Shown here piece by piece: positions 2,527 to 31,733 of a stretch of DNA of 41,874 nt. The position numbers and the translations under genes were made by a program. Each line of letters starts with the position of its first letter. Position 1 is the first letter of the stretch. Origin of the DNA: Fidelibacterota bacterium. Its GTDB lineage: Bacteria > Fidelibacterota > Marinisomatia > Marinisomatales > TCS56. Below the pieces are notes generated by a model. It saw only the letters and a list, made by a program, of their open reading frames with translations, did no database searches and was not told the DNA's origin. The stretch lies in the NCBI GenBank assembly GCA_043822705.1, contig JBDRBK010000099.1, positions 1 through 41,874 of the forward strand, written 5' to 3'.

Positions 2527-2534
2527 TTACAGCT

Positions 2535-3407: not shown

Positions 3408-3436
3408 TTGCATCTGGTGTATTTGGCAGTTAATTT
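3408..3436 (+). promoter_or_regulatory. Putative housekeeping promoter of the signalling/EPS operon
   Basis: TTGCAT-N17-TAATTT, 22 bp before the Hpt ATG. Confidence 0.45.
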
Positions 3437-3458
3437 CTACCAAATATAAGAGCGCCGA

Positions 3459-4167: not shown

Positions 4168-4229
4168 CCGGTTTCCAAGAAATCCGATGAAGAGTCATAA
4201 GCAGCTTCAGAATAAACACGGAAAAATAT

Positions 4230-15056: not shown

Positions 15057-16040
15057 TTACTGCCCCTCCCGCAAGCGCAATTGTTCCAACCGGTCCGCTC
15101 CCACCAGTTCCAGGTAATCGCGATGGTCCCGCGGCTCATAAATCCAGCGATTTAGGTAATCCGCCACCGGGGCCGTATCCTTGGAGCGGGCGACATAATC
15201 CCGGATATGGGCTTCGTCGCGCTCGTAGCAATAACTCATTTCACCGGGATGGGCACCGAAGGGCGCCTCGACGACGGCGTCGACCAGGTAGTAGGGAATG
15301 AGCGTCCGGTCCGGCCGCTGGCGGGTGAGATCGACATCGACAATTTCCTCGGCGGATATAATCAGCCGTTTGGAGGCCCGCGCCATTTCGGCGGCGAAAC
15401 CGGAGATGCCGTCGATCTGGGCGTTGCCGTACTTGTCGGCCCGGTGGACATGGATCAAGCCCACGTCGAGGATCAACGCCGGCAGCAGACAGACCTTCAT
15501 CCCGGTGAAGGGACATTCGGCCACTTTGGCGGCGCTGTACTTGAATGTGTCGGTGCCCAGCATGACCCGCGTCGGCAGGAAGGGCACGCCCATGGCGGCG
15601 GCCTTGAAACGCCAGGACAGGGCGGCATTGGACCATTCCACCACCTTTTCGACATAGCCCCCCTCCACCGAGCGCCGGGCGCTGGCGGAGAGTCCGTAGA
15701 CCTCGAACCCGATGTAGGTCCAGTCCAGTTTTTTGATCGCATTGGCAGCCGCCAGCAGATCCGATTCATAGACACCCTGGCCGGCACAGCGTAATTCCTT
15801 ATAACCCTGGCGGATCACTTCCCGCACCAGCGACATTGGCGCCCGCACGGTGCCGTACAGTTCGATCCCGATATAGTCGCCATCCTTCAGGAATGTAACG
15901 ATCGCCTCCTGCTCGGTCATTACTTTGTCGACCAGCGCCTTGGATTTTTGGGTGCGGTTCCACTCCCGGAAGGCGTCCAAATCCGGTGGCTGAATCAGTT
16001 CACCGGTTCCACTGTCCAAAATATTCATTCGATTCCCCAT
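15057..16040 (-). CDS. Family I CoA-transferase alpha subunit (GctA-like)
   Basis: AAAMGVPFLP, DVGLIHVHRADKYGNAQI, IISAEEIV and VVEAPFGAHP. Confidence 0.9.
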   Translation of the reverse strand: MGNRMNILDSGTGELIQPPDLDAFREWNRTQKSKALVDKVMTEQEAIVTFLKDGDYIGIELYGTVRAPMSLVREVIRQGYKELRCAGQGVYESDLLAAANAIKKLDWTYIGFEVYGLSASARRSVEGGYVEKVVEWSNAALSWRFKAAAMGVPFLPTRVMLGTDTFKYSAAKVAECPFTGMKVCLLPALILDVGLIHVHRADKYGNAQIDGISGFAAEMARASKRLIISAEEIVDVDLTRQRPDRTLIPYYLVDAVVEAPFGAHPGEMSYCYERDEAHIRDYVARSKDTAPVADYLNRWIYEPRDHRDYLELVGADRLEQLRLREGQ

Positions 16041-16344
16041 TCAGTTTCAGCGTTCAACTTGATTAAAATATAAGTAAATGAATTTAAAATGGCTGCCAAT
16101 TTGATGTGGTAATTAATTAACAGTACCGGCATTCCCGCCGGTCCACAACCCATTGCACCGCAGATCAATTCTTCCACCAATTGGAATGATATTTTGAACT
16201 GAATACATCACCGGTGCACTATCCCGGAACAGTTAAGTAGCGGTAACTTTATTGATTCAGAAATATCTGAGCGATATATTCAGCAGTGATGAGAGGGATA
16301 ATATTATTTTTCATAACCTCGCAATAATTCTTCATAAATAGTTT

Positions 16345-17023
16345 TTAGGCTGATACCTACAGTGGTTACCCACAGAAAGGGTTGAGCGAGATGGGATTAC
16401 AAGAAAGTTGGATCAATTTCCTCCACCGGGCAGCGACGGGCACCAAAAAGACCCGGACACTTCTTACGCCGATCGGTGTGATGATCTTCTGCACGTTCGC
16501 GACATTGTTTGTGTTCGCCGCAATCATTGTCGACAGGCTGCTACATCTGCCCCGCCTTTTGCCTGAAGGAGCCAGGCTTCCACTATCAATACCAGTGATG
16601 ACGCTAGGGGTTGCAATTACCGCTTGGTCTGCGTTTCATTTTCTGAAAGTGAGGGGAACGCCGGTGCCCTTCAATCCGCCCCCTCAAGTGGTTAAGACCG
16701 GCCCCTATCGGTACACCAGAAATCCGATGCTTACGGGGGTCGTCCTGTTTTTATTCGGCGTAGGATTCGGTGTCAACTCTGTTTCGCTCGTGTTCTTCTT
16801 CACGCCACTATTCATTTTGATCAATGTGTGGGAACTGAAGCAGATTGAGGAGCCTGAACTGATGAAGCGTTTGGGAGATGAGTACATCGAATATCGAAGC
16901 CAAACTCCAATGTTTCTACCAGGGTTCAGACCAAGAACGAAGTCGAATGCCTAATAAAGTGCTTGAAGGGACTGTTGCTGCCGGCGCCCGCATCTCAATC
17001 GCCACTTAGCTCGGGCATTGCAC
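16345..17023 (+). mobile_element. Possible solitary integron-type gene cassette with degenerate attC
   Basis: TTAGGC at 16345-16350 before the ORF; complementary GCCTAA(T) overlapping the stop at 16949-16955; then an attC-like layout GCCTAAT-AAAGT-GCTTGAAGGGAC...GCCACTTAGC-TCGGGC-ATTGCAC. Confidence 0.45.
16391..16954 (+). CDS. Isoprenylcysteine carboxyl methyltransferase/PEMT family membrane protein
   Basis: GTPVPFNPP, TGPYRYTRNPM and EEPELMKRLGDEYIEYRSQTPMFLP. Confidence 0.9.
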   Translation: MGLQESWINFLHRAATGTKKTRTLLTPIGVMIFCTFATLFVFAAIIVDRLLHLPRLLPEGARLPLSIPVMTLGVAITAWSAFHFLKVRGTPVPFNPPPQVVKTGPYRYTRNPMLTGVVLFLFGVGFGVNSVSLVFFFTPLFILINVWELKQIEEPELMKRLGDEYIEYRSQTPMFLPGFRPRTKSNA

Positions 17024-17141
17024 ATATCGGCAATTATTCAATAGGTTGACATAAGGCACTTACGACCTCGTTGTATCTGAAATAATCAGAGTATGATTTG
17101 TTAACTCACTCGCTAAAGTAAAGCCGTCAATTATTATAGCA

Positions 17142-17160
17142 ATTAGTAACGATTACTGTT
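17142..17160. promoter_or_regulatory. Putative PerR/Fur-family operator
   Basis: Inverted repeat AGTAA-CGA-TTACT (17145-17157) abutting the -35 of the perR promoter. Confidence 0.55.
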
Positions 17161-17161
17161 A

Positions 17162-17190
17162 TTGATTTGTATTAAATAATATTCTAAGTT
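17162..17190 (+). promoter_or_regulatory. Putative promoter of perR-ahpC
   Basis: TTGATT-N17-TAAGTT, followed by an AAGGAG RBS. Confidence 0.5.
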
Positions 17191-17213
17191 CGACGGTAAC
17201 AAAAGGAGCAACA

Positions 17214-17588
17214 ATGCGCTACAGCCGACAACGGGAAGAAATATTGAATATCGTGCGGTTGAACCCGGTTCACCCCACCGCCGACTGGGTTTATGAGCAA
17301 GCCCGGAAATCCATACCAAATATTAGTCTGGGCACGGTTTATCGCAACCTGAATCAGCTGGTCCAAAACCGGCAGGTCCGGGCGGTCAAGTTTGAAGGTT
17401 GCGTGCACTACGACGGCAATCTCCACGATCATGTTCACTTCACTTGCTCCGAATGCCAAAATATATTCGATGTTCAGCACTCAATCGACGACCTGCTGAA
17501 CCAATTCAGTCCCAATTGCGACCACCTTATAACCGGCGGACGGCTCGAACTCACCGGTATCTGCAAAAATTGTCAAACACTAAACTAA
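17214..17588 (+). CDS. perR: Peroxide-responsive Fur-family repressor PerR
   Basis: HPTADWVY, SLGTVYRNL, YDGNLHDHVHFTCSECQNIFD (Asp at the PerR-type position) and CKNC; upstream of ahpC and sodB. Confidence 0.82.
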   Translation: MRYSRQREEILNIVRLNPVHPTADWVYEQARKSIPNISLGTVYRNLNQLVQNRQVRAVKFEGCVHYDGNLHDHVHFTCSECQNIFDVQHSIDDLLNQFSPNCDHLITGGRLELTGICKNCQTLN

Positions 17589-17606
17589 CGTAAAAGAGGA
17601 AATAAA

Positions 17607-18251
17607 ATGCTGGTAACCAAACCCGCCCCCGATTTCACCGCCCAGGCGATCATGCCCGACAATTCTTTCAAGGAAATCAATCTGGCCGACTATAAAGGCA
17701 AAAAAGTGGTCCTGTTCTTTTATCCCCTGGATTTCACTTTTGTCTGTCCGACCGAAATCATCGCTTTCGATCATCGCTTAGCCGAATTTGAGAAACGCGG
17801 GGTCCAGGTACTGGGTTGCTCGGTCGATTCCCAGTACAGTCACTGGGCCTGGAAAAATATCGTTGAAAAGAACGGTGGAATCGGCAATGTGCGTTATCCG
17901 CTGATTGCCGACCTGAACAAATCCATCGCCCGCGCCTACGACGTGCTGGTGGGATCGGAAGAAGCTTTCGTAGCCACCGATGCCGGCGAATTCAATACTT
18001 CCGTCGGTGGCGGCGTCGCCCTGCGGGCTTCATTCCTGATCGATGAAGAAGGAATCGTGCGGCATGCCGTGATCAATGATCTGCCGCTGGGGCGGAATGT
18101 CGATGAAATGCTGCGGATGGTGGACGCCCTGACATTCAATCAGCGGCATGGCGAAGTCTGTCCCGCCGGCTGGGAAGATGGTCAGGATGGAATGAAAGAC
18201 ACCGCCGAAGGCGTCGCCAGTTATTTGAATAAACACGCAAGCGACCTGTAA
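17607..18251 (+). CDS. ahpC: 2-Cys peroxiredoxin (AhpC/Tsa family)
   Basis: [13 protein letters not shown] and GEVCPAGW. Confidence 0.95.
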
Positions 18252-18267
18252 GCTTGTTTGCGCACCA

Positions 18268-18302
18268 GCGGGTGGCGGGGTTCGCCCTTCCCCGTGACCC
18301 GC
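18268..18302 (+). terminator. GC-rich hairpin between ahpC and sodB (terminator or mRNA-stabilising stem)
   Basis: GCGGGTGGCGGGG pairs with CCCCGTGACCCGC; weak U tract. Confidence 0.4.
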
Positions 18303-18361
18303 ACTTACTGTCTTTTCGGCTGATTTGCATTTAAATTCCAATTTATCAGGAGAACAGAAAA

Positions 18362-18943
18362 ATGGAACATCAATTACCAAAACTGCCTTGGGGCGATACG
18401 GCCCTGGAACCACATATTTCCCGGGAAACGATCGCCTATCATTACGGCAAGCACCACCAGGCCTATGTGACCAATCTGAATATACTCGAGCCCGGTACCG
18501 AGTTTGAAAATCTGACGCTGGTCGAGATCATCAAGCAGGCACCCGCCGGTGGGATATTCAACAATGCCGCCCAGGTCTGGAATCATTCCTTCTACTGGAA
18601 CTGCCTCAGTCCCAAAGGCGGCGGCGAACCAGCCGGCGCTTTGGCCAAGGCGATCGGCAAGGCTTTCGGATCGTTCGCTGATTTCAAGGAAAAATTCACC
18701 GCTTCGGCGGCTACCAATTTCGGCTCCGGCTGGACCTGGCTGGTGAAAAACGCCGCCGGTGGGCTTGAGATAGTAAATACCGCCAATGCCGGCACACCGC
18801 TTACCACTGACAAAAAGCCACTGCTGACCGTCGATGTCTGGGAACACGCTTACTACGTTGATTACCGGAATGCCCGCCTGGAATACCTGAAAAGCTTCTG
18901 GAACCTGGTCAACTGGGAATTCGTGGCAGCCAACTTAGGTTAG
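18362..18943 (+). CDS. sodB: Fe-superoxide dismutase
   Basis: [16 protein letters not shown] (Fe-type AQ signature) and DVWEHAYY. Confidence 0.95.
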
Positions 18944-18945
18944 CT

Positions 18946-19090
18946 CTCAGCGGTTGCTGAGCCCGACCGCTGCAACCTGATTATCCTCCGCACACCGATC
19001 TGCCCGCAACAAGGACCGGTAGCAACGACTATTGTAAATCATTGACCGTTGCTAGCGGTCGGGCGGGCCGGATTCCCCCGGTCCGGTCGC
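18946..19090. repeat. Cluster of nested inverted repeats after sodB
   Basis: GCCCGACCGCTGCAAC (18961-18976) and GACCGGTAGCAACG (19014-19027) can each pair with CGTTGCTAGCGGTCGGGC (19047-19064); small hairpin CTCAGC/GCTGAG at 18946-18961. Confidence 0.55.
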
Positions 19091-19110
19091 TCGAGTGCTG
19101 TATATCTCCA

Positions 19111-19200
19111 CACTGTAGCATTCTGCTACAGTGCTCATAAGCTCTTGTATTTTGCTGTATTAATCTTTCGACTGGTAATAGCCTGTAGTATTACTCGACA
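19111..19200. promoter_or_regulatory. Putative sigma54 enhancer (UAS) sites
   Basis: Perfect palindrome CACTGTAGCA-TTC-TGCTACAGTG (19111-19133) and a second TGT-N11-ACA, TGTAGTATTACTCGACA (19184-19200), about 80-170 bp upstream of a -24/-12 promoter. Confidence 0.7.
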
Positions 19201-19278
19201 CTAATCAATATTAATATTCTTATAGTAGTGATGCTATATGTCCATATTAATATGTTGTTTATGAAATATATTTCCATG

Positions 19279-19294
19279 TGGCACATCAATTGCT
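19279..19294 (+). promoter_or_regulatory. Sigma54 (-24/-12) promoter
   Basis: TGGCAC-ATCAA-TTGCT, an exact match to TGGCAC-N5-TTGCW, 33 bp before ATG 19328. Confidence 0.85.
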
Positions 19295-19327
19295 GATTCT
19301 ATTTCAGCAACATAAAGGAAGTGTGCC

Positions 19328-20020
19328 ATGAGTGTCATCATATTGGTAATATTCGTCTTAGCCTGTCTGAGTATCGATTATTACCTCAAAAAACGAAGAA
19401 AACGTGTGATTGAGAAAAGCCCCATCCTTCACAATAAAACATTTCAACTGCGACAAAACCGGGTGCTGGTACCCCAGGGTATCTACTTTGCTAAGTCACA
19501 CGCTTGGGCTTACCTGATAGAAACAGGCCTAGTGCGGGTTGGTCTTGATGATTTTTTAAAGCACATAATCGGCCGTGTGACCAGAATATCGGCTTCCGGT
19601 AATAATGCTTCAATCATTCAGAACGAAGCATTGTTGAATCTCGAGCAGGATGAAAAAAAACTGACGATTGCGGCTCCGATATCAGGCAGGGTAAAGCGGA
19701 TTAATCCCGAGATTCTGAATAATCCGCAAAATGCACTGGGCTTGCCTTATAAGGACCGGTGGATCTACGAACTGGAGCCCGCTAACTGGGAAGAGGAAAC
19801 AAAAAACCTTCACCTGGGGCGTACTGCTTCCAAATGGATTGAAAAGGAATTTATCCGTCTAAAGGAGTTTTTCGCCTACTTAATGAGTGGGGACGGATCA
19901 TCAAGTGCCTATGCCACCATTCTGCAGGATGGTGGGGAAATTGCTGAAAAAGTTCTGGAATATTCTGGTCAGGAGACCTGGCAGAAGTTCCAAGTGGAAT
20001 TTTTGGACCAGCAATCCTAA
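19328..20020 (+). CDS. Membrane-anchored glycine-cleavage-H-like protein lacking the lipoyl lysine
   Basis: YFAKSHAWA, VRVGLDDF, APISGRVKRINP and PYKDRWIY; N-terminal TM; LQDGG tail. Confidence 0.82.
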   Translation: MSVIILVIFVLACLSIDYYLKKRRKRVIEKSPILHNKTFQLRQNRVLVPQGIYFAKSHAWAYLIETGLVRVGLDDFLKHIIGRVTRISASGNNASIIQNEALLNLEQDEKKLTIAAPISGRVKRINPEILNNPQNALGLPYKDRWIYELEPANWEEETKNLHLGRTASKWIEKEFIRLKEFFAYLMSGDGSSSAYATILQDGGEIAEKVLEYSGQETWQKFQVEFLDQQS

Positions 20021-20112
20021 ATACTAATTGGCAACAAATCGTGAATTCGCAGTGGGCAGGGTTTAATCTGCTGCTGCAAACCCAACTATTATAGGACAAT
20101 GGGAGTTAATGA

Positions 20113-20976
20113 ATGAGTATCGATAGAAGAAATTTCATTAAGGCATTGGGTGTTACTGGTACCAGTTTGATCGGAGCCCGGTCACTGAACGCCAAGACAG
20201 TGAAACCATCGGTCGAAATGAAAGGCATACTGATTGACACAACTCTATGTGAGGGTTGCCAGTCATGTGAATATGCCTGTGCTGAAGCAAATAACCTTCC
20301 CGAGCCGGGGGATTACCCTGAAGCCGGTGTAAATCGTAATTTGACTACTGAACAATTGACCGTGGTTAACTGTTATGATACATCACGAGGTGAAATATAT
20401 GTAAAAAAGCAGTGTTTCCATTGTAATCAACCAGCCTGCGATGCTGCCTGTTTGACCAAGGCCATGAACAAGACTGATGATGGTCCGGTCGTCTGGCGGG
20501 AAGAAAAATGCATGGGTTGTCGCTACTGTATGATATCCTGTCCGTTTGAAATCCCGAAATTTGAATACGACAGTCCTGTCCCCAGCATAAAAAAATGCAG
20601 CATGTGCTGGGCTCGCCAGCAGGAGGGCGAACTTCCCGCTTGTGTCGAAAACTGTCCTAATGAAGCAATCCTGTTTGGGACCAGGCGGGAATTATTGGCA
20701 GAAGCCCGGCGCAGAATCAGTATTAACCCGGATCAGTACTACGATCATATCTATGGTGAAGAAGAGGCTGGTGGAACGGGAATCTTGTATCTGTCGGCGG
20801 TCTCCTTTGATGAACTGGGATTCAATACCGGAATTCAAAAGGAATCCTATCCCAAGCTGACCAAGGGTTTCCTGTACAGCGTACCGTCCATTTTTGTTCT
20901 ATGGCCGATGATGCTGCTGGGATTATACAAATCGACTAATGGAGAGCAAACTGATAATCAGGGGGAAGAGTTATGA
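20113..20976 (+). CDS. Tat-exported 4x[4Fe-4S] ferredoxin subunit (HybA/HmcB/NrfC-like) with C-terminal TM
   Basis: SIDRRNFIK Tat motif; CEGCQSCEYAC, CFHCNQPACDAAC, CMGCRYCMISCP and CSMC...PACVENCP. Confidence 0.92.
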   Translation: MSIDRRNFIKALGVTGTSLIGARSLNAKTVKPSVEMKGILIDTTLCEGCQSCEYACAEANNLPEPGDYPEAGVNRNLTTEQLTVVNCYDTSRGEIYVKKQCFHCNQPACDAACLTKAMNKTDDGPVVWREEKCMGCRYCMISCPFEIPKFEYDSPVPSIKKCSMCWARQQEGELPACVENCPNEAILFGTRRELLAEARRRISINPDQYYDHIYGEEEAGGTGILYLSAVSFDELGFNTGIQKESYPKLTKGFLYSVPSIFVLWPMMLLGLYKSTNGEQTDNQGEEL

Positions 20977-22214
20977 ACCATTCCGATAGCATTACCGCAG
21001 ACGGTGTGCGATCACAAAGTTTAGGCCGCTTTCTGCTTAACGAATTAAAGCCGAAAGGGGAAATATTTACACCATTTAATCTGATTTCGGTCCCGGTGAT
21101 TATTCTGGGATTGATCATCATCTTCATCCGGTTCTGGAAGGGTTTGGGAGCGGTAACCAATTTATCGCAAACCGTCCCCTGGGGCCTGTGGATTGGCTTT
21201 GATGTGGTTACCGGAGTGGCTTTTGCCGGCGGAGCCTACGTATTAACTTTTATGGTTTATGTACTAAATATTAAAAAATACGAGCCAATAGTGCGGGTCA
21301 CGGTATTAAATGGCTTCCTGGCCTACCTGTTTTATGCGGGAGCCTTACTATTGGATCTGGGACGCCCATGGAATGTAATAAATCCGATCATAGGTAATTC
21401 ATTCGGTACCAGCAGTGTACTGTTTCTGGTAGCCTGGCATTTCATGCTCTATATGTTTGCCACCTTGATAGAATTCTCACCGGCCATCGCCGAATGGCTG
21501 GGGATGGAACGGATCCGGCGAATCCTTAAAAGCCTGACTGTTGGCGCTGTTATCTTCGGCATTACCCTATCCACTTTGCACCAGTCCGGCTTGGGGGCCC
21601 CCTATCTGATGGCCAAGGATAAGATTCATCCACTATGGTACACGGAATTCATCCCGATCCTGTTTTTCGTATCCAGCATATTTGCCGGACTATCGATGGT
21701 CATCTTCGAAGGTTCAATTACCTACCGGGTATTTTCCCACCAGGTTTCCAAAGATGATCATCGACATCACAATGCACTGTTATTCGGACTTGCCAAAGTC
21801 TGTGCCGGAGCAATGTTCGTTTATCTGTTTCTGAAACTATTGATTCTGGCACATGAACAGCAGTGGTCCCAGCTTTCGACTGGTTTCGGGAACTGGTACC
21901 TGCTGGAAATAATTGGTTTCGTGTTGTTGCCAATGATCCTGTTTATCAGCAGTATTAAGCAACAAAATCTGATCCTTGTAAAAATCGCCTCAGTACTGAC
22001 ACTGGTGGGAATCATCCTTAACCGCTTAAATGTGACCGTAATCGGTTTTCATTGGGATGCGGCTGTACGGTATGTTCCTACCTGGATGGAAATAGTGGTG
22101 ACCTTGGCGATAATATTCATCGAAATCTGGGTTTTTCGCTGGATTGTCAACCGCATGCCTGTTTTGAATCATGCTATTCCGGCAACCAGAGCAGTTAAAA
22201 TATCAACTGATTAA
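20973..22214 (+). CDS. NrfD/PsrC-family integral membrane quinone-interacting subunit (HybB/HmcC-like)
   Basis: TNLSQTVPWGLWIGFDV, LDLGRPW, LSTLHQSGLG and HPLWY; about 10 TM helices. Confidence 0.92.
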   Translation: MNHSDSITADGVRSQSLGRFLLNELKPKGEIFTPFNLISVPVIILGLIIIFIRFWKGLGAVTNLSQTVPWGLWIGFDVVTGVAFAGGAYVLTFMVYVLNIKKYEPIVRVTVLNGFLAYLFYAGALLLDLGRPWNVINPIIGNSFGTSSVLFLVAWHFMLYMFATLIEFSPAIAEWLGMERIRRILKSLTVGAVIFGITLSTLHQSGLGAPYLMAKDKIHPLWYTEFIPILFFVSSIFAGLSMVIFEGSITYRVFSHQVSKDDHRHHNALLFGLAKVCAGAMFVYLFLKLLILAHEQQWSQLSTGFGNWYLLEIIGFVLLPMILFISSIKQQNLILVKIASVLTLVGIILNRLNVTVIGFHWDAAVRYVPTWMEIVVTLAIIFIEIWVFRWIVNRMPVLNHAIPATRAVKISTD

Positions 22215-22224
22215 GGGTATAAAA

Positions 22225-22953
22225 ATGGAAAATTTCGTTCATACCAATATTTTTGCCACCAAAGGAATCGAATATTTAATCGTAATCGGGTTTCTGCTGC
22301 TGGTTATTCCTTTCTGGCGCTACCTAAATTCACCAGTCAGACTTTCCCCGGTGCTTGGTTTTTCCACAATTCAGGCTGCAGTGAAACGGATCACAGGCAG
22401 TATTCCCGAGGGTGTCTTCCTGGATCCGACCCATTCCTGGGCTTTTCTGGAATCATCTGGTATGGCCCGGGTCGGGGTTGATACATTCTTGTTGTCGGCC
22501 ACCGGACCGGTGAATTATCGTGAATTAAGAAATCCCGGTGATAGTATCAGTCGGGGGGATGTGATCAGCCTGCTGGAGCAGGATGGGAAACAGCTGAAAA
22601 TTTACTCTCCTATCTCCGGTGTCGTCGGGCAGCGTAACCGTAAATTGTCCAGATCATTTGAATCGAATGAGAATTTTTATTCTCAAGGCTGGCTCTACAT
22701 GATTAAACCGGATAACTGGAAACATGAGGTCGGCAAACTATTGTTTGCAAAGAAAGCCGAAGAGTGGATTAAATCAGAATTTGACCGCTTGAAGGATTTC
22801 TTTGCTTTCTCGACCAGTAAATACGGTTATAATCCGGAATTGATAGTACTCCAGGACGGTGGTGCCCTGGTGGATCAGGCGCTGGAACAGATGCCCGCGG
22901 ATATCTGGGCTGAATTTCAGACTGAATTCATTGATGCCAACAAGACTGAGTGA
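22225..22953 (+). CDS. Second membrane-anchored GcvH-like protein lacking the lipoyl lysine
   Basis: IFATKGIEYLIVIGFLLL TM, THSWA, ARVGVD, YSPISGVV, YSQGWLY and LQDGG. Start moved to ATG 22225. Confidence 0.82.
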   Translation: MENFVHTNIFATKGIEYLIVIGFLLLVIPFWRYLNSPVRLSPVLGFSTIQAAVKRITGSIPEGVFLDPTHSWAFLESSGMARVGVDTFLLSATGPVNYRELRNPGDSISRGDVISLLEQDGKQLKIYSPISGVVGQRNRKLSRSFESNENFYSQGWLYMIKPDNWKHEVGKLLFAKKAEEWIKSEFDRLKDFFAFSTSKYGYNPELIVLQDGGALVDQALEQMPADIWAEFQTEFIDANKTE

Positions 22954-22982
22954 TAACCAGCTGATCTTTATCAGGTAGAATA

Positions 22983-23741
22983 GTGAAAGCGAAAAATCTA
23001 AAGTGTATCTGGATGGAGGCCGGTGTTGTGGACTACCAATTATGCCGGTTGAATTTTGAATGCGAGACCTGTGATATCCATTCCAGAGTTACCAAACCCG
23101 CTATAGCAGTAGGGGTTGAGGAGTCGCGATCACAGAGATTGATTAAAATTAATTTTAAGTCACCGGCGACAGATTCATTTGTCGCCGGTGTGCAATATTA
23201 TCCGAATCATGTCTGGATTAAACGTGTCAGTCGGAATCGGGTGCTCACTGGATTGGACGATTTATTCTTTAGCCTGTGGAACGATATCAGCCGGATAATT
23301 ACCAAGGATGTTAATGCACTGCTGACAGCTAATAGCAGTTTTGCCTGGCTGACTACAGCCGATGGATTAGTGAACCTGAAACTTCCTTTCAGTGGAAAAG
23401 TGATTGCCATAAATCCACTCCTGTCCGAAGATGAAAAAAACAATCTGGAAATAATCAGGGAACTTCCGTTAGAACAACTCTGGTTACTGAAAATGGAGCC
23501 GGTGGAAGGCGTGTTAAATCAGAATACCTGGTTGACCAAACAACAGTATATCAAACAATTGATTGATGACACCAGGTTGATTCATGCCACAATTTCTAAT
23601 GATTACCAGGCCCGATCCATTCCTCCACCGGCGATGATTGAAACCCTGCAGGCTTACCAGCGAAAAACCATTACCCTGACGAGGCCGGCGCTCAAGCACC
23701 TGGTTGATAAATTATCACGCGGCACCCATCAATTTCATTAG
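22983..23741 (+). CDS. Soluble GcvH-like protein with N-terminal Cys cluster
   Basis: CIWMEAGVVDYQLCRLNFECETC (CX12CX5CX2C), then YYPNHVWI, TGLDD and LPFSGKVIAINP. Confidence 0.75.
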   Translation: MKAKNLKCIWMEAGVVDYQLCRLNFECETCDIHSRVTKPAIAVGVEESRSQRLIKINFKSPATDSFVAGVQYYPNHVWIKRVSRNRVLTGLDDLFFSLWNDISRIITKDVNALLTANSSFAWLTTADGLVNLKLPFSGKVIAINPLLSEDEKNNLEIIRELPLEQLWLLKMEPVEGVLNQNTWLTKQQYIKQLIDDTRLIHATISNDYQARSIPPPAMIETLQAYQRKTITLTRPALKHLVDKLSRGTHQFH

Positions 23742-23807
23742 CCGGGGAGTTGTTTTAAGACGGCTAATATATATGTAAATTTGGGCGGAGTTGATTAAAT
23801 ATTACTA

Positions 23808-25439
23808 ATGAAACCGGAACAGATTAGCACAAGGTCCTCGATTTATCGGCGTATAATCCTTTCCTTGCTATCCATTTCCCTGGTTTTCTTCAGTCTTCTG
23901 GCCTATGTCGTTTTCAGTGTAAACCGCAACCAGTCCGAAAAAATCATCCGGCAGTGCGGTAATCGGGTATCTTTTATAATCAACCGCGCCCTGCATAAAT
24001 CCATGTTGATCAATGACAATACCGAACTTCGAGAAATCATTGTCGAGTTAACAAAGTTGTCGGGTTTGTTGCAGATTGATATTTACGACCAGCAAGGTAA
24101 TCTTAAACATGCCACAGGTCAATTGTCAGGACTTGAATCGGAGCAGAACATCGCTGAAAAAATAGAGCAGATCCATCATCAAATCGATGCCGAATCTTAT
24201 TCTCCTGAACAGTTTTATACTATATCCCGGATTGGCAATATCGGTCGGATTCTCAAATTGTCCACCCCGATTCTGAATGAACCGAATTGCACTAATACGG
24301 CCTGTCATATTCATAGTGGTGATGATCCTATTCTGGGATTATTGCAGATAAAACTATCGCTTTCAGAGATCGATAAGACCAGGGCATCTTCGGAAATATA
24401 TTATTTTGCTTTGGTTTCAGTATTCATTCTTGCCAGCATAATAATCATGGTAACATTTACCGAGCGCACTATTCACCGTCCCATGGCCCATATTGTGCGG
24501 GCCAGTAATGAAGTAGCCAAAGGGAATCTGGATATCCGTATACCGGTGCAGGATTTTAAGGATGCCGATGTATCGCATGTGGGCACGGCTTTCAATAATA
24601 TGCTGGATGAATTGGGTCAGGCCAACAAAAAACTGCGACGCTGGTCCAAGGACCTGGAAGAGACAGTCAGAATAAAAACCGAAGAAATTAAACGGACACA
24701 GAATGAATTAATCCGGATTGAACGCATGGCCTCTCTGGGCAAACTGTCGTCGTCGGTGGCGCACGAGATCAATAATCCCCTGTCAGGTGTTTTAACGTAT
24801 TCCAAGCTGGTTGCTCGCCTGCTGAAAAAAGATCCGGTTGATCCTGAGGATATGCAGAATATTTTCGGTTATTTGGAGATGATCGAATCGGAAACCAAGC
24901 GCTGTGGTAATATCGTCAAGGGACTGTTGGATTTTTCACGCCAGGAACCGTCCCGTCATGAAATTGTACCACTGAACAGTATTCTGGTGGAAACACAGAC
25001 CTTAATGGAACATTCCTTCAAAGTGGCCCAGGTAGATTTTGAAACTGATTTTTCCGCTATCGCCGACCTGATCCAGTGTAATCCAAACCAGATCAAGCAG
25101 ATATGCATTGCCGTCCTGGTTAATGCCATCGAAGCAATTACCAGAGAAGGCCGGGTGACTTTCACATCTGGCAATAATGATGATTTATCGGAAGTAAATA
25201 TTACGATTACTGATAATGGTTCAGGAATCCGATCTGAGGATAAGGATCACATCTTCGAACCATTTTTTACCAGGAAAAAGGATGGCGCCGGTTCGGGACT
25301 CGGGTTGGCAGTTACTTACGGCATCGTTCAACGGCATAAAGGTCGTATCGAGGTGGAATCAGAATTAACCAAAGGTACAAAATTTGTAATAACGTTGCCG
25401 GTTTACACTAAAACCAAGGATATTTCCAATGCGGGATAA
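23808..25439 (+). CDS. Membrane sensor histidine kinase (NtrB-like, HAMP) with periplasmic CX4CH motif
   Basis: Two TMs; NEPNCTNTACHIH; VAHEINNPL, DNGSGI, FEPFFTRK and GSGLGL. Confidence 0.93.
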   Translation: MKPEQISTRSSIYRRIILSLLSISLVFFSLLAYVVFSVNRNQSEKIIRQCGNRVSFIINRALHKSMLINDNTELREIIVELTKLSGLLQIDIYDQQGNLKHATGQLSGLESEQNIAEKIEQIHHQIDAESYSPEQFYTISRIGNIGRILKLSTPILNEPNCTNTACHIHSGDDPILGLLQIKLSLSEIDKTRASSEIYYFALVSVFILASIIIMVTFTERTIHRPMAHIVRASNEVAKGNLDIRIPVQDFKDADVSHVGTAFNNMLDELGQANKKLRRWSKDLEETVRIKTEEIKRTQNELIRIERMASLGKLSSSVAHEINNPLSGVLTYSKLVARLLKKDPVDPEDMQNIFGYLEMIESETKRCGNIVKGLLDFSRQEPSRHEIVPLNSILVETQTLMEHSFKVAQVDFETDFSAIADLIQCNPNQIKQICIAVLVNAIEAITREGRVTFTSGNNDDLSEVNITITDNGSGIRSEDKDHIFEPFFTRKKDGAGSGLGLAVTYGIVQRHKGRIEVESELTKGTKFVITLPVYTKTKDISNAG

Positions 25440-26766
25440 ACTTTCCATTCTTATTGTCGATGATGAACTCTCGGTCCGGGATTCATTGAGCAACTGGTTT
25501 GCCGCCGATGGATATGATGTCAGCAATGCGGGCAATGCTGTTGAAGCGCTCCAGAAACTGGAGTATAAGGAATTCCAAATTATTCTGATTGATATAAAAA
25601 TGCCGGGGATGGATGGTCTTGAATTACACCGTCGCATCAAGGCCACCAATAATAAAGCAATTGTGATTATCATGACCGCCTTCGCCTCAGTTGACTCGGC
25701 AGTAGAGGCACTGAAAGACGGTGCCTACGATTATATCTGTAAACCATTCGACCCGGATCAACTCTCACAGATAATTCACAAGGCATCTGAAATTGTGGTA
25801 ACTGAATCCGGGACTAAAATTACCGAAGAACAACCACGGGAGTTGGAAAATGTTGAAAACATAGTCGGCAACAGCCCGGCCATGATGGAAGTATTTGAAC
25901 AGGTGAAAGTGCTTTCCGGAACAGATTCGACGGTCATCATAACCGGGCAGAGCGGCACCGGTAAGGAACTGATCGCCCATGCTATCCATATTAATTCCAA
26001 TCGCCGTTATTTTCCCATGATTATCGTTCACTGCGGTGCCGTCACCGAAACCTTGCTGGAAAGCGAGTTGTTTGGTCATGAGCGGGGTGCTTTTACCGGG
26101 GCCAGCTATCACCGTAAAGGTAAATTTGAAATGGCCAACGGTGGGACATTATTTTTGGATGAGATTGCAACAGTCTCATCCAAGATGCAGATTGAGCTGT
26201 TGCGGGTCCTGGAATCCAAAACCTTTACCAGGGTTGGTGGCAGTAAGGAAATCAAATCAGATTTCCGGGTAATCGCCGCCACTAATCGGGATTTAAAGAA
26301 CATGGTGAAGGAAGGTATGTTCCGGGAGGATCTGTATTATCGTTTGAACGTATTTAATATCCATGTTCCATCTTTAAAGGAACGCCGGGAAGATATCCCT
26401 GCCCTGGTCGATCATTTTATTAAAAAATATGACCAGCTAATGAATCGGTCAGTCCGGAAAATTGAGGCCGTTGCTCTGGAAGCGTTGTCCCGCTATGATT
26501 TCCCGGGTAATGTACGCGAACTGGAAAATATAATTGAGCGGGCCATTGTTTTATGTAAAGGCGATACCATCAAACAGAAAGATTTACCAATCGCCGATGA
26601 GTTAATTGATACCAGCACGGAAAGTATCACTGAAATTGAAAAAAACCATATTCAACGGATTCTGAATAAGTACGATTGGAATATTTCCAAAACTGCCAAA
26701 TCACTGGGGATTGATCGTGCTACCCTTTATAACAAGATCAATAAATATGGTATTAACAAGCCGTGA
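25429..26766 (+). CDS. Sigma54-dependent response regulator (NtrC/AtoC family)
   Basis: Receiver domain, GQSGTGKEL, ESELFGHERGAFTGA, LFLDEI, FREDLYYRL, PGNVREL and Fis-type HTH. Confidence 0.96.
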   Translation: MRDKLSILIVDDELSVRDSLSNWFAADGYDVSNAGNAVEALQKLEYKEFQIILIDIKMPGMDGLELHRRIKATNNKAIVIIMTAFASVDSAVEALKDGAYDYICKPFDPDQLSQIIHKASEIVVTESGTKITEEQPRELENVENIVGNSPAMMEVFEQVKVLSGTDSTVIITGQSGTGKELIAHAIHINSNRRYFPMIIVHCGAVTETLLESELFGHERGAFTGASYHRKGKFEMANGGTLFLDEIATVSSKMQIELLRVLESKTFTRVGGSKEIKSDFRVIAATNRDLKNMVKEGMFREDLYYRLNVFNIHVPSLKERREDIPALVDHFIKKYDQLMNRSVRKIEAVALEALSRYDFPGNVRELENIIERAIVLCKGDTIKQKDLPIADELIDTSTESITEIEKNHIQRILNKYDWNISKTAKSLGIDRATLYNKINKYGINKP

Positions 26767-26865
26767 ACCAGAATCCCAGTCAAGCAGTTGCCAGCTATTA
26801 AATTACCGACCAATTCTTGTAGTTAAAAGGTGGGAAAGATTTCATCCTGTTTGTAATCGAGTATT

Positions 26866-27393
26866 ATGGTCACTTCCGGTACAATATACTTGGTTCCCTT
26901 TTCAATCGAGATCGATCATCTGCTGCTTCAACTGCAGGATATTATTCAACAACAATTTAAATATCATACCAGAATCAAAGAGCAGCATTTCGACCTGAGC
27001 CGATATTTTAATCCGGACCGGGTACAATACTCGGCCAATGATATTTTAGCTCATCTACTGGAATTATCTGTTGAGAATAATGATAAAATCATTGGTCTAA
27101 CCGGGGTTGATATATATATCCCGGTGCTGACCTTTATATTTGGTCAAGCCTATTTGGGCGGGCGCGCTGGAGTAATATCGGATTACCGTCTCAAAAACGA
27201 ATTTTACGGAATGCCCAATGATCAAGAATTATTCGAACAACGATTGACCAAGTGTATTATCCATGAACTGGGACATATGTTCGGGATACTGCACTGTAAC
27301 AGGCTGGATTGCGTTATGCGTTCGGCAACATATGTAGAGGAAATTGATCAGAAATCGATTTATTTATGCCAGAGATGTGCACAGCAATTATGA
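26866..27393 (+). CDS. Archaemetzincin family zinc metalloprotease (M54)
   Basis: FIFGQA, HELGHMFGILHC...CVM...CQRC. Confidence 0.9.
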   Translation: MVTSGTIYLVPFSIEIDHLLLQLQDIIQQQFKYHTRIKEQHFDLSRYFNPDRVQYSANDILAHLLELSVENNDKIIGLTGVDIYIPVLTFIFGQAYLGGRAGVISDYRLKNEFYGMPNDQELFEQRLTKCIIHELGHMFGILHCNRLDCVMRSATYVEEIDQKSIYLCQRCAQQL

Positions 27394-27902
27394 TCAATCG
27401 GGAAATAATACCTGATCGAACAATAGTCATTATAACCCGACCAATATGGCCCTTGAATTTGCCAAGTTGTCAAATGAATTAATTTTTGCAGGCTGTTCAA
27501 TTACAATCCATCGGATATTGGCCATCAGTGCATGATATTGCCGTGCTTTCTGGACTACTGAACTAAGTGATTATCAAAACCTTGCTGTTGCCCATATATT
27601 TCCAGTGGTTGGGTGATTAATTCGTCGGACTTTTTTATATCCCATCGGATTAAGCTGCAAATATTTCAGTTGAACGATGGTTTCAGAATCTGCACCACCA
27701 TGTGACAAAAATTCAATTCGCATAGTCAATGAATCATAATAGGAATCGTGGATTTGGAGATAACCGCGGTCCTGCCGTAATATATAATTTTTTCATGTCG
27801 ACGGCATTCCAATAGACAACGTCAATAAAAACCGCGGTGATTATTAACCGCAGATTCATACTATAATCGATTGATACCAATCAGAGAGTAGAAAACAATA
27901 GA

Positions 27903-28940
27903 CTATTCAGTGAAGGATTTAACCTTTTCCGTCCAGACACCTTCGAGTATCTGATATTTTGCCTGAGAAGCACCACCTAAACTGTCCAGAGTGAAAATCA
28001 TGTGAAGATCATTGAATCGTTCATTATTAATGTATAGACGATCATCCAAACTGCGAAATCCATATTCAACGAACGCCATTTGTGCCTCGTTACCCCATAA
28101 AAACGCCATGAAATCAGACACTGATTCTTCTTTTTCAGGAGATCTTTGCTGGTCGATTTTCAAAGCTTTGGGTTCACACATAATGGTCCATTTGGGAACG
28201 ACGACAGTACCACCCATCACACGTCCATCACTTGGATTTATTATTTCCGATTCATATGTGATAATGGTATTGCCCCGACCGTTAATATACTGCTGGCGCC
28301 CAAGGATCGCTGATGCTGGTTTCAGGTTTACTTGTTTCCATATTTGCCGCATGCGTAGGATGGCCAGGTGTTCGTCTCGCGTTGAATACTTAAAAGCCCC
28401 ATATAAGGCTAACACAGTCCATTGTCCCAGGCCTGAGAAATTGGAATTGCACATAATCAGCTGAGTATTCTGTTGCGCCAAATCATCGAAATCTGTGATG
28501 GAGTCAAGTTCTGCGGGATTGTATAATATTAAGATGGGAGTGTAAGCAAGAGTGCCTTCGAAGGGTGATTTCAACCAAGACGCTTCTGACAATACACCAT
28601 GATTGTACAATCGTAGCGCATCGATCTCCGAGGCTAAAATGGCGATATCTATATTTTCCCTAGTGATGAGGTGGTTTGTTAGCATTGTTGAACCACCATA
28701 GCGGGTATGAATTTCAACATTCAGATTATCATTGGATTTCTGCAACTCTTTGAAGGCCGGCAGAATACGCTCTTCCATCACATCTCTCATCGCGCTAAAG
28801 CAATAAAGTTCAATCGTAATATCTGGCGATTGATTGCTGCAGCCTGCTATTAATTGGATGAAAAGCAAAAGTCCCGATGCACGCATAATGGTAGTTAAAA
28901 AACCATTGAGGAAGCGGAAGCGATTGGAATGAATTTTCAT
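27903..28940 (-). CDS. Orphan Sbp/CysP-like anion-binding lipoprotein
   Basis: LIAGC lipobox; YGGS, ITDFDDLA, SGLGQW, ITYESE and EAQMAFVEYGFR. Confidence 0.7.
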   Translation of the reverse strand: MKIHSNRFRFLNGFLTTIMRASGLLLFIQLIAGCSNQSPDITIELYCFSAMRDVMEERILPAFKELQKSNDNLNVEIHTRYGGSTMLTNHLITRENIDIAILASEIDALRLYNHGVLSEASWLKSPFEGTLAYTPILILYNPAELDSITDFDDLAQQNTQLIMCNSNFSGLGQWTVLALYGAFKYSTRDEHLAILRMRQIWKQVNLKPASAILGRQQYINGRGNTIITYESEIINPSDGRVMGGTVVVPKWTIMCEPKALKIDQQRSPEKEESVSDFMAFLWGNEAQMAFVEYGFRSLDDRLYINNERFNDLHMIFTLDSLGGASQAKYQILEGVWTEKVKSFTE

Positions 28941-29496
28941 GTTACCCCCATTTTATTATGGTATCAGGTGTAAATGATACCGTAATGAAGTATTGAAACA
29001 TATATAATGTTACCACAGCAATAATACCTTTCGCAATATATACCAGTATTCAATTATATGCCTCTAACCGAGCTCCTTGGCATGGTTTTTACAATTTTCT
29101 AAATTAGTGCTAGCTAATATTTAATCGAGCATAATTCTAATTGTGTCTTTAATTATGTTCTTTTTTCATGATATAGTATAGATACCCACGACTTCACAGA
29201 TATGGTCGTTTTCAAAGTACAAGCTTCGCTTGTCCTGCAACTTTCTGACACTACGATCACATTCCCGCGTCAGGAAAACACAAGCTGTGGCTCTCACCCC
29301 CACTATGACGGACAGGGAACTCCCGCTGGATCAGATGATGAATCCCGGAACGAAAATCATAGCCTGTATTTTTACTATATTGGTAAGGCTGATAGACCTA
29401 AGCGCATAGCCAAAATCTGCGGTTTATGAGTTTATCAGATATATGTTTCCAAGACTCAATGTCTACTTGGCTAATATTTGCCGGATTCCGTCACCA

Positions 29497-31476
29497 TTAT
29501 TCCGAATGATGTCGTTCGTAATATTCTTTAGCTTGGAAGGAAACGTCTTCAATTGTTGTTATACCTTCCTCAATGGCAGCTACTTCTTCCATAATCCGTT
29601 GATAATCGACCGGGTGCTTGTGTTTGTACTCGGCAATTGTCATCCGCCCATGAAGCCAGGTCATGCTCATTGGGTATTCCTTGGGATGCAGCATCACAAA
29701 GAAGAAATGCCAGACAAGAATTGCCAAGGTCGCCAGCCATGCTTCGTACAGATGGAAGACTTCGGCAACCTTAATCATCCATAATGGTGAATACTGGGTA
29801 AAGAATACCGGGTACCAGAGAATAAATCCCGAGATAATCATTACGATTGTTCCCCAGATCAGCGCCCAGTATTCAGCTTTTTCAGTGTAATCGAACCGGT
29901 CGAACTGCGGCTCATTCTTGGTCAGGTGCATACTGTAGAGCATCAACTGATAAAAACCCTGGAAATCGCTGATTGCTGGCAATAGTGCCTTGAAAAACTG
30001 ATTGCCGCGTTTTGTTACAATAACTTCAACAAAATGCCAAATTGAAAGTGCAATCAACAGAATTGCGGCTGCCCGGTGGACTATTCCACGTACCGTTTCG
30101 GTCAAACCAATCTTCCCCAGCAAGTCTGCCCAGAATGTGTCCAGATATTTCAAGGCAAACCCAGTAATCACCAACGTAAAAAAGGATATTATTAGGATGA
30201 CATGTTGCCAGACTTGTGATTTGGTGTAGCGTTGGATGTAATCCTGGGGTTCTTCATTTTTGTACTTATGGATCAGCAGCTCTACAAATATGATAAGATT
30301 GTGCATTAACATACCACCGATCACCACTACAATCAGAAAAATATAGACGATTTTAACAAAGTATTCCACCGGTTTTTCGGCAAGAATAACGGACTGATGG
30401 GTATAGGATTGCGAGAATATTTCGGTAGCTCCCGGGTGACATTCAGCACAGGTTTCACGTAAATTGGACTTATGAATTGCGGAACCGGGATCGCTGACGG
30501 GCAGAATGTAATGGGCCAGATGACAATCATAGCAGGTAGCAGCATCTGCGTCGCCTTTTATTACGGCTAATCCATGATAACTATCCTGATAACTTGAAAC
30601 TTTACCTGTCATCAAGCCATACTTGCTGATCATCCGCTCATCATTATGACAGCGGGCGCAGGTCTTTTCGGCGGCACTCCGTTTTGAAACCGGTGAACTG
30701 GGATCATGAATATCCACAATTTCATGTTCACCGTGACAATCGATACAACTGGGAGATTCTCTTTCACCCCGGGCCAGTGCCTCCCAGTGCACGCTCTTGG
30801 TATATAACGCATAAATGGTATCATGGCATACGCCACAGGTAGTAGATATATTTGAATGGCTTATGGTCGAAGTGGGATCGGTATTGGTTTTGATGTCATG
30901 CACGCCATGACAATCATTGCATGTTGCAGCCAATAGATTCCCATTTTCACCCAATTGTTTCGCATGATAACTTTTTGAAAACAGTTCTACCGGGTGCAGG
31001 TCAGGGATATTGTACTTTTCGACTAGTTCGGGTTGGGCATGGCATTGACCGCAGGTATTCGCCAGCTTCGGGGGATAGGTCAGAGATTCAGAATCTGTGG
31101 CCGGCAAGATATTGTGGCTACCATGACAGCTGTAACAGTATGCCGCATCCATGTCAGAATCTTCCCGCCAGATCGATATGCCATGAGCGCTGGTATTATA
31201 CTCTTCACTGGCTTCCTCATGACAGGCTCCACAGGATTCACATACATCCTGGCAATCAGTTTCATAACCGTCTGAATGATCGATTCCAAGTTTCTGAATT
31301 ACCTGATGGCAATCCAGACATTCCAATTCCGCATGGATTGATTCCTCAATGGATACTTCACCATGGCATTCCTGGCAAGATTCACTGCTAAAATCCTCAT
31401 CATAATCCTGAGCCCAGAGGAAACTTGCAGTAAGAATTACCATGATTAATTGCACTGGACGACAAGTCGTAACCAT
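29497..31476 (-). CDS. CbcL-like multiheme cytochrome c (11 CxxCH) fused to an FdnI-type cytochrome b membrane domain
   Basis: Signal peptide; 11 CxxCH counted; TM domain with His in QH, VHR, WHF and FHLYEA; FDRFDYTEKAEYWALIWG. Confidence 0.92.
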   Translation of the reverse strand: MVTTCRPVQLIMVILTASFLWAQDYDEDFSSESCQECHGEVSIEESIHAELECLDCHQVIQKLGIDHSDGYETDCQDVCESCGACHEEASEEYNTSAHGISIWREDSDMDAAYCYSCHGSHNILPATDSESLTYPPKLANTCGQCHAQPELVEKYNIPDLHPVELFSKSYHAKQLGENGNLLAATCNDCHGVHDIKTNTDPTSTISHSNISTTCGVCHDTIYALYTKSVHWEALARGERESPSCIDCHGEHEIVDIHDPSSPVSKRSAAEKTCARCHNDERMISKYGLMTGKVSSYQDSYHGLAVIKGDADAATCYDCHLAHYILPVSDPGSAIHKSNLRETCAECHPGATEIFSQSYTHQSVILAEKPVEYFVKIVYIFLIVVVIGGMLMHNLIIFVELLIHKYKNEEPQDYIQRYTKSQVWQHVILIISFFTLVITGFALKYLDTFWADLLGKIGLTETVRGIVHRAAAILLIALSIWHFVEVIVTKRGNQFFKALLPAISDFQGFYQLMLYSMHLTKNEPQFDRFDYTEKAEYWALIWGTIVMIISGFILWYPVFFTQYSPLWMIKVAEVFHLYEAWLATLAILVWHFFFVMLHPKEYPMSMTWLHGRMTIAEYKHKHPVDYQRIMEEVAAIEEGITTIEDVSFQAKEYYERHHSE

Positions 31477-31733
31477 AATTACACCCGCTTATTGAAATTA
31501 ATATGACTGTTAGAACCGTTCACTCAAAGTAAAACCAATCCAGATGTTCAAAATGAATCATTGTAAAGGGTCATATTTAATAATTGTAATTATGACTTGC
31601 TTCATCGATGATTATTAATGATCAATTACTCAATATTTCCTGAAAGCAACGATACTGCTATCGGCAAAACCGGGATCAGTTTATCAAGTTTTAAATGACT
31701 AATGTGACTCACTCATATCTCTGAAGTAGGAAT

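Follow-up and report, generated by a model that had tools for sequence, protein, structure and literature searches.

A conserved sigma-54-linked gene cassette joining GcvH-fold proteins without the lipoyl lysine to an FeS/NrfD pair, a two-component system and an archaemetzincin

The operon and its closest described relatives

In the Hmc and Nhc complexes of Desulfovibrio (HmcABCDEF and NhcABCD) and in HybA/HybB of Escherichia coli hydrogenase 2, an iron-sulfur (FeS) protein with a twin-arginine translocation (Tat) signal is paired with an NrfD-type membrane subunit; NhcABCD is a cytochrome c3:quinone oxidoreductase according to the accessible part of a review of the NrfD family (PMC8076601). 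Here we describe an operon built around such a pair at 19328-27393 of the 41,874-nucleotide (nt) contig JBDRBK010000099.1, the whole of which is called the window below, from a metagenome-assembled genome (MAG; 3.34 Mb, 93% complete) of a Fidelibacterota bacterium. Its eight same-strand open reading frames (ORFs), G1 to G8, are all intact and open, with short gaps or overlaps between them (Table 1). Two GcvH-fold proteins with transmembrane (TM) anchors (G1, G4) flank the FeS/NrfD pair (G2, G3), followed by a third, Cys-rich GcvH-fold protein (G5), a sensor kinase (G6), a sigma-54 activator (G7) and an archaemetzincin of peptidase family M54 (G8). In our view the system is real and conserved, seems not to have been published and is made of known parts; its mechanism we infer. 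The full-text literature searched held no description of the cassette, including the combinations of NrfD/Hmc with GcvH or of archaemetzincin with sigma-54 or glycine cleavage, in line with the original prediction of an undescribed arrangement. Papers on 'GcvH-like' proteins, as far as their listings and abstracts go, deal with lipoylated carriers.

Families were assigned with Pfam and NCBIfam models at their curated bit cut-offs. G2 carries a DRRNFIK twin-arginine signal and four Cys clusters typical of a 4x[4Fe-4S] protein, and scores 305 bits against HmcB (cut-off 420) and 220 bits against HybA (cut-off 263), while G3 scores 403 bits against HmcC (cut-off 550) and 252 bits against HybB (cut-off 450). 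The pair, which had been labelled HybAB-like, is thus closer to HmcB/HmcC. The likeness to Hmc/Nhc may go beyond a Tat 4x[4Fe-4S] protein and an NrfD-type subunit as top matches: a small TM partner follows the NrfD gene (the N-terminal helix of G4, with the motif TKGxEY, weakly matches the HmcD model NF045712 at E 0.002-0.004 and 17-18 bits, cut-off 34), and a multihaem cytochrome is added in some related cassettes. On the other hand, the operon scores below the equivalog cut-offs, has no HmcA/NhcA cytochrome and no HmcE/HmcF domains, fuses the small TM partner to a GcvH-fold domain, and includes a haem-motif kinase, a sigma-54 activator and an M54 protein of its own. Hydrogenase 2 likewise has a Tat FeS subunit with a C-terminal TM helix next to the NrfD-type HybB, the second-best matches here, but a Pfam scan found no hydrogenase small or large subunits or maturation genes among the eight genes. 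In the accessible part of the NrfD-family review, NhcC genes are recorded in two Bacteroidetes and one Chlorobi species, and glycine-cleavage-like partners are not mentioned (PMC8076601).

The claim that the operon holds no cytochrome stands for separate subunits but needs a qualification for the kinase, which has the only haem motif of the operon. G6 carries a periplasmic CTNTACH (CX4CH) between its two TM helices, and C161, C166 and H167 are kept in 74 of 74 homologues. The motif is of the c type and lies in the periplasmic sensor domain, where haem attachment is predicted. A second, upstream CXXCH is found in 69 of the 74 homologues and has been lost in the window and its four closest relatives. 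A sequence search of the Protein Data Bank (PDB) with the periplasmic domain gave no match below E 1.

In its regulatory logic the operon may be compared with cbcBA of Geobacter sulfurreducens, where the RpoN-dependent regulator BccR acts with a sigma-54 promoter on an inner-membrane quinone oxidoreductase. That system is switched on as the redox potential falls and its operon includes two hypothetical proteins, according to the accessible part of the report (bioRxiv 10.1101/2021.04.15.440034). Its oxidoreductase is, in the same account, a pair of b- and c-type cytochromes and not an FeS/NrfD pair, and the available text mentions no M54 protease and no GcvH-fold protein; Geobacter GSU0597 is termed 'hypothetical' in the accessible parts of the papers. 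BccR/cbcBA offers the nearest studied logic. In the NifL-NifA and PspA-PspF pairs a partner that does not bind DNA, and is sometimes redox-sensing or membrane-associated, controls the sigma-54 activator. The parallel with the GcvH-fold proteins would be one of analogy, not homology, and a contact between them and the activator is conjecture.

Table 1. Features of the operon and its control region, in window coordinates
Feature	Position	Strand	Description
Upstream activator site 1	19114..19130	+	TGTAGCATTCTGCTACA; TGT-N11-ACA palindrome
Upstream activator site 2	19184..19200	+	TGTAGTATTACTCGACA; 9/10 specified positions; 70 nt past site 1
Sigma-54 (-24/-12) promoter	19279..19294	+	TGGCACatcaaTTGCt; exact match; 34 nt ahead of G1 ATG
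G1	19328..20020	+	230 aa; N-terminal TM helix, KKRRKR, cytoplasmic GcvH-fold domain (predicted topology), LQDGG tail; GCV_H E 6e-14
G2	20113..20976	+	287 aa; Tat-signal 4x[4Fe-4S] protein with C-terminal TM helix, HmcB/HybA-like
G3	20973..22214	+	413 aa; NrfD-type quinone-interacting membrane subunit, HmcC/NhcC-like
G4	22225..22953	+	242 aa; conserved N-terminal stub, TM helix, cytoplasmic GcvH-fold domain (predicted topology), LQDGG tail; GCV_H E 1.5e-15
G5	22983..23741	+	252 aa, GTG start; soluble Cys-motif GcvH-fold protein; GCV_H E 1.6e-7
G6	23808..25439	+	543 aa; sensor histidine kinase, two TM helices, HAMP/HisKA/HATPase (Pfam)
G7	25429..26766	+	445 aa; NtrC-type activator: REC, AAA+ with GAFTGA, HTH_8; Sigma54_activat 231 bits
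G8	26866..27393	+	175 aa; archaemetzincin (peptidase M54), HELGHMFGILH, C-X4-C...C-X2-C

GcvH-fold proteins of the operon

G1, G4 and G5 have the same fold as GcvH, LbpA of the sHdr system and GcvH-L of Firmicutes, but they lack a Lys at the lipoylated column, have a TM helix or a Cys motif in addition, and end in a helical tail that carries DGG. Aligned to the canonical GcvH of this genome, the lipoyl-Lys column holds E in G1, G in G4 and D in G5, and a profile of 23 G4 homologues compared with solved GcvH chains gave the same result, so that the replacements proposed from the sequence are borne out. The paralogues reach 32-52 bits against the GcvH equivalog TIGR00527 (cut-off 115.85) and 32-56 bits against NCBIfam GcvH-type models overall (cut-offs 116-117). 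The AlphaFold2 model of G4 (predicted local distance difference test, pLDDT, 78) shows a barrel of the GcvH type between a TM helix and a helical tail, and in Foldseek it matched GcvH 1onl (TM-score 0.81, E 1.4e-9) as well as GcvH-L 5a35. No P, T or L proteins of glycine cleavage and no ligase lie near the operon, as had been claimed: the canonical gcvH sits beside gcvP on another contig (C110), and matches to the BPL/LplA/LipB family (PF03099) are confined to other contigs of the genome. Neither the Pfam scan of the operon nor the survey of conserved loci found a lipoyl ligase or partner enzyme in the cassette.

Two anchored paralogues with an LQDGG tail do surround the FeS/NrfD pair, and within that tail Q210, G212 and G213 are kept in 120 of 120 G4 homologues. 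Positive-inside signals place the GcvH domains of both G1 and G4 in the cytoplasm, a prediction from the sequence. The G4 frame opens at 22171, and the ATG at 22225 is the start used in the database gene call (242 aa). Among G4 homologues, one of 24 matches the ubiquitin-like SAMP1 model (E 8.5e-5), which brings the DGG tail to mind, as double-glycine sites are processed in other systems. Another, in a Rikenellaceae-labelled MAG (L021, 8001-8705) has an in-frame stop, possibly a pseudogene or a sequencing error. A conserved membrane Asp/Glu in the G1-type helix was considered and dropped; it was seen by eye in about 10 of 17 short forms.

The third paralogue is of a different type, with no hairpin Lys and no DGG. 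Its motif C8-X12-C21-X5-C27-X2-C30, described earlier as CX12CX5CX2C, is invariant in 11 of 11 orthologues and looks like a putative four-Cys metal site for Zn or Fe-S. The public gene call begins at residue 11 (skipping window positions 22983-23012) and loses the first Cys; conservation of the motif makes the GTG at 22983 the better start. With the Cys-motif segments, Pfam (E<=1) returned no family and one sub-threshold zf-CHY match (E 0.0016). The AlphaFold2 model of G5 has a pLDDT of 79.

A word-based homologue search from G5 gave 5 matches, and family size was taken from an exhaustive profile search of 1.84 billion cluster representatives (E<=1e-3), which places 1595 clusters in the Cys-type family. 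Among the best 150 of these, CX10-14CX5CX2C occurs in 141 and a DGG tail in 120. While G5 itself is present in 10 of the 80 genome loci surveyed below, labelled Marinimicrobia or Lentisphaeria, a scan of metagenome contigs seeded by the Cys-type profile (a closer subset was used, the first broad alignment being too diverse) yielded at least 508 relatives, of which 80 loci were kept. Most of these hold the same cassette, with the Cys-type gene between the TM-GcvH-like gene and the kinase, so the third paralogue is a common part of the cassette, missing mainly from its Bacteroidales version. A strict link between DGG tail and M54 was considered and rejected, since several M54-adjacent Cys-type proteins, including G5 of the window, have no DGG.

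Could these proteins nevertheless be carriers? A Lys stands one residue past the lipoyl column in G1 and G4, not in G5, and across the G4 homologues this residue (K122) is K in 116 of 120 and R in 2 of 120. Together with the lipoate/biotin ligase-family genes elsewhere in the genome, and with the precedent of LbpA, a lipoate-binding GcvH relative that serves the non-glycine redox system sHdr (accessible part of PMC6067878), this would fit true swinging-arm proteins with lipoate or another group on the shifted Lys of G1 and G4 or on a Cys of G5, shuttling reducing equivalents or sulfur/one-carbon units. We consider this improbable. The canonical column is E, G or D, the Cys-type family has K there in 6 of 126 members with a locatable hairpin (among the best 150), and the cassette has no ligase or partner enzyme. 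Moreover, a one-position shift of the lysine is reported to abolish lipoylation of lipoyl domains. In other membrane-tethered variants the +1 residue is K or R, and the soluble REC-fused forms have no basic residue there; this interchange in tethered forms and absence in soluble ones fits an electrostatic role rather than a modification site, and we read the +1 Lys as a probable electrostatic contact, not an acylation site.

Domain fusions point to a different use of the fold. A cluster of REC+GCV_H proteins was flagged in the protein Atlas, and a survey of 61 genomes sampled from the phylum of one cassette locus (L036) provided five loci (L085-L089). The first three, which were scanned with Pfam, each encode a Tat-FeS protein, an NrfD protein, a multihaem cytochrome or NrfD-cytochrome fusion, and a two-haem-motif kinase, after which come the sole response regulators, the REC+GcvH and TM+REC+GcvH proteins; the stretches read show neither a sigma-54 activator nor an M54 gene that belongs to the REC-GcvH unit. 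L088, judged by ORF layout only, resembles this type, and L089 is of the activator/M54 type with a Cys-GcvH protein. Another protein (P0196) combines a Cys-GcvH module with a HisKA/HATPase kinase core in one chain. The first GcvH-like protein of most Bacteroidales, about 560 aa long, starts with a signal peptide and continues with a PstS-like binding domain (profile against PDB: 4gd5 3e-7, 4omb 1e-6), a TM helix, RSKRKEK and the GcvH module. A fold that serves as the output of a regulator, the input of a kinase and the cytoplasmic end of a receptor-like protein behaves as a signalling module, and the best reading is that the H-protein fold is here a putative signalling adaptor, not a lipoyl carrier.

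Two of the surveyed loci have further features. In L087 (652-7423, minus strand) the next five genes encode four multihaem cytochromes (4 to 16 haem motifs) and a protein of 421 aa that matched no Pfam family, a group reminiscent of an outer-membrane electron conduit. L086 (12402-18470) has two tandem cassettes on one contig, the first of the REC-GcvH type and the second of the activator type, and the second includes a 519-aa protein with a GcvH module and DGG tail at its C-terminus.

Conservation and reduced forms of the cassette

We counted conservation in the best 80 of 539 loci that have a relative of G4, found by scanning one genome of each GTDB species with a degenerate pattern, using for each gene only the loci with enough flank. 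The conserved order is GcvH-like, FeS, NrfD, TM-GcvH-like, kinase, activator, M54. The FeS gene is present in 71 of 71 loci, the kinase gene in 68 of 68, the first GcvH-like gene in 63 of 64, and the activator and M54 genes each in 58 of 59, with HExxHxxGxxH in 58 of 58 M54 proteins; the synteny survey proposed with the original prediction thus finds the gene set conserved as a unit across phyla (58-71 of 59-71 loci per gene). Carriers are labelled Marinimicrobia/Neomarinimicrobiota, Bacteroidales (including the cultured Sunxiuqinia dokdonensis DH1 and S. elliptica, loci L031 and L046), Lentisphaeria and Chlorobiota. Among the best 80 loci a given flanking gene family recurs in six at most, so the cassette is self-contained. 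Such retention of order and content across Marinimicrobia, Bacteroidales, Lentisphaeria and Chlorobiota-labelled MAGs, in intact frames with family-specific invariant motifs, leaves very little room for the notion of accidental neighbours with decaying GcvH duplicates, which we find hardly credible.

The metagenome loci of at least 9 kb (n=31) contain the activator in 29 cases, the kinase in 26, the FeS and NrfD genes in 24 each and M54 in 20, and several of those without M54 end before the M54 position. An adjacent M54 was seen for 32 activators, while 5 activators had none despite at least 900 nt of room. Of the 32 activator-M54 pairs, 14 lie in loci without an NrfD homologue in the stretch examined. 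For example, L158 has a reduced cassette of PAS-GAF kinase, activator, M54 and Cys-GcvH, followed by a 1477-aa HdrA/GltD-like flavo-FeS protein. In L157 the N-terminal half of the kinase (2529-4559) resembles the large subunit of [FeFe]-hydrogenase and has ferredoxin motifs, and the cassette also holds M54, a sigma-54 activator and a GcvH-like protein with a double Cys motif; the reduced cassette of L155 has four GcvH-like genes. Kinases with PAS/GAF or [FeFe]-hydrogenase-like sensors in cassettes without FeS/NrfD point to redox sensing. The invariant core is the kinase, the sigma-54 activator, M54 and one or more GcvH-fold proteins, and the FeS/NrfD pair is an add-on. The original prediction had seen the H-fold as repurposed in a redox complex: its signalling side has its strongest backing in the REC, kinase and receptor-like fusions, but a redox module as the constant part does not agree with a core that occurs without FeS/NrfD.

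These reduced forms also bear on whether the operon is an ordinary Nhc/Hmc-like respiratory oxidoreductase, working from a periplasmic donor to quinone or from quinol to an acceptor, with the GcvH-fold proteins as structural or assembly subunits, M54 as a maturation protease, the two-component system setting expression, and the catalytic or cytochrome partner elsewhere. HmcB and HmcC are, after all, the top family matches, G3 has a mean column identity of 75% (24 loci, several phyla), related cassettes have either a gene for a multihaem cytochrome or a fusion of NrfD and cytochrome, the window has two CbcL-like cytochrome genes at 2 kb from the operon, and the operon seems to be the sole target of its activator (see below). 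At the same time, GcvH-fold protein, M54, kinase and activator stay together without FeS/NrfD in those 14 of 32 pairs, the fold is fused to REC and kinase cores, unlike structural subunits, and, on what the accessible part of the NrfD-family review says of this family, the cytoplasmic GcvH domains have no way of being reached by electrons from a cofactor-less NrfD (PMC8076601). Because of the cassettes without FeS/NrfD and the REC and kinase fusions, we think this explanation unlikely, although it is the least unlikely of the alternatives considered.

Promoter, proposed working and neighbouring genes

The sigma-54 linkage of the operon, claimed at the outset, is supported by the exact promoter match TGGCACatcaaTTGCt together with the activator G7. 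G6, G7 and the control region have the complete set of NtrC-type features, namely REC/AAA+ (GAFTGA)/HTH, HisKA/HATPase, a -24/-12 promoter and upstream sites. Of 61 related loci, 54 have the promoter pattern TGGCA[CT]-N5-TTG 5' of gene 1 (expected 0.0035 per 500 nt), and 45 have TGT-N11-ACA sites there. In public sequencing runs the sequence was listed for DNA samples only, at small shares, and for no RNA run. A motif search across the 3.34-Mb genome found paired TGT-N11-ACA sites with a promoter once only, here, which suggests that the structural genes are the apparent regulon. On the strand of the operon no terminator-like site was found 3' of G8, in a scan that returned three sites against 8.7 expected. 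Tight spacing and overlaps, the single sigma-54 promoter and the paired activator sites are the grounds for treating the eight genes as one unit. G8 scores 161 bits against the NCBIfam archaemetzincin model (archmetzin, NF033823; cut-off 145) and has the HExxHxxGxxH zinc site and the Cys4 structural site of M54, from which protease activity is predicted.

Our best explanation, to which we give roughly even chances as a whole, is that the eight genes are one sigma-54-dependent, self-activated operon, the Marinimicrobia version of a widespread cassette, and that they encode a self-regulated redox-sensing device in which a signalling core of kinase, activator, M54 and GcvH-fold adaptors is joined to an Hmc/Nhc-type FeS/NrfD module. 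In this device the FeS/NrfD pair would let the quinone pool and the periplasm exchange electrons, and the kinase would read the redox state of the periplasm or the quinone pool through a covalently bound haem, perhaps standing in for the missing Hmc/Nhc cytochrome subunit. The kinase would then phosphorylate the activator, which would bind the two TGT-N11-ACA sites and fire the sigma-54 promoter, and self-activation would act as positive feedback, so that more of the module is made. G1 and G4, tethered by their TM helices at the cytoplasmic face, and the soluble G5 with its putative four-Cys metal site could serve as protein-protein signalling adaptors or as sensors, linking the membrane module with kinase and activator, and the zinc protease may trim or remove one of the partners. 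Since the operon apparently has no target besides itself, we take the FeS/NrfD module to be probably an effector as well, and the cassette probably an inducible electron-transfer valve, not a pure sensor.

Several points weigh against this explanation. Haem attachment to the kinase and the metal content of G5, whose Cys region is modelled at low confidence, are predictions from the motifs. M54 is not universal, as the five roomy activators without it show, and the REC-GcvH type has neither M54 nor a sigma-54 activator. The near-invariant +1 Lys of the G4 family could still be modified, and the HmcD likeness of the G4 helix is weak, being below the cut-off and reaching E<=0.01 in 6 of 24 members. 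The argument that the operon is its own regulon depends on a simple search for motifs in a MAG that is 93% complete; moreover, an operon as its own sole target makes a pure sensor implausible, and the model does not specify the job of the effector. All physical contacts, the way in which electrons flow, the input signal and the substrate of the protease are inferred from what was observed, namely the genes present and their conservation, the promoter, the motifs and folds, the topology signals and the domain fusions. A complex prediction for G3 (NrfD) and G4 gave a score of 0.35, against 0.37 for the control, which weighs on neither side of the question of binding.

A bolder proposal is that lipoate-free GcvH-fold proteins and archaemetzincin together mark a new, widespread class of sigma-54-linked redox signalling in anaerobes, in which the fold would be a dedicated signalling domain, used as response-regulator output, as kinase input and as a membrane-tethered transducer on quinone modules, and M54 would reset the switch by cleaving the adaptors, perhaps at the DGG tail, and thereby control the activator; we put it forward tentatively, as doubtful yet possible. 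If true, the H-protein fold, among the oldest carrier folds, would also have a place in signalling. The archaemetzincins would acquire their first functional context in bacteria; to our knowledge their role is unknown in archaea and humans. It would also provide a control circuit by which many anaerobes of sediments and the subsurface (Bacteroidales, Marinimicrobia, Ignavibacteria-like and delta-proteobacteria-like lineages) read the redox state of the periplasm or the quinone pool and tune an Hmc/Nhc-type module, and presence of the cassette in cultured Sunxiuqinia makes it directly testable.

The surroundings of the operon hold further redox genes. Directly upstream on the same strand (17214-18943) are a PerR-like Fur-family regulator, a peroxiredoxin (AhpC/PrxC-like) and an Fe/Mn superoxide dismutase; locus L006 has these three genes ahead of its cassette as well, which may indicate a lineage-specific oxidative-stress link. 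Two genes 2 kb downstream on the opposite strand (29497-31476 and 31734-34244) each encode a multihaem cytochrome c domain fused to a cytochrome b561/FdnI-like domain and are candidates for CbcL-like quinol oxidoreductases. Homologues of the first follow M54 in L036 and L138. Between these genes and the operon, and convergent to M54, lies a gene for a lipoprotein-like SBP_bac_11 solute-binding protein (27903-28940, minus strand) that is not conserved beside the cassette; it resembles sulfate/thiosulfate-binding proteins, far below the cut-offs, and may be compared with the PstS-like oxyanion-binding fusion of Bacteroidales. Finally, G+C is 0.41-0.50 over window positions 16001-32000 and 0.51-0.60 on both sides, so that an island or a compositionally distinct block is possible. 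A misassembly is made less likely by the synteny seen in L006 and L138.

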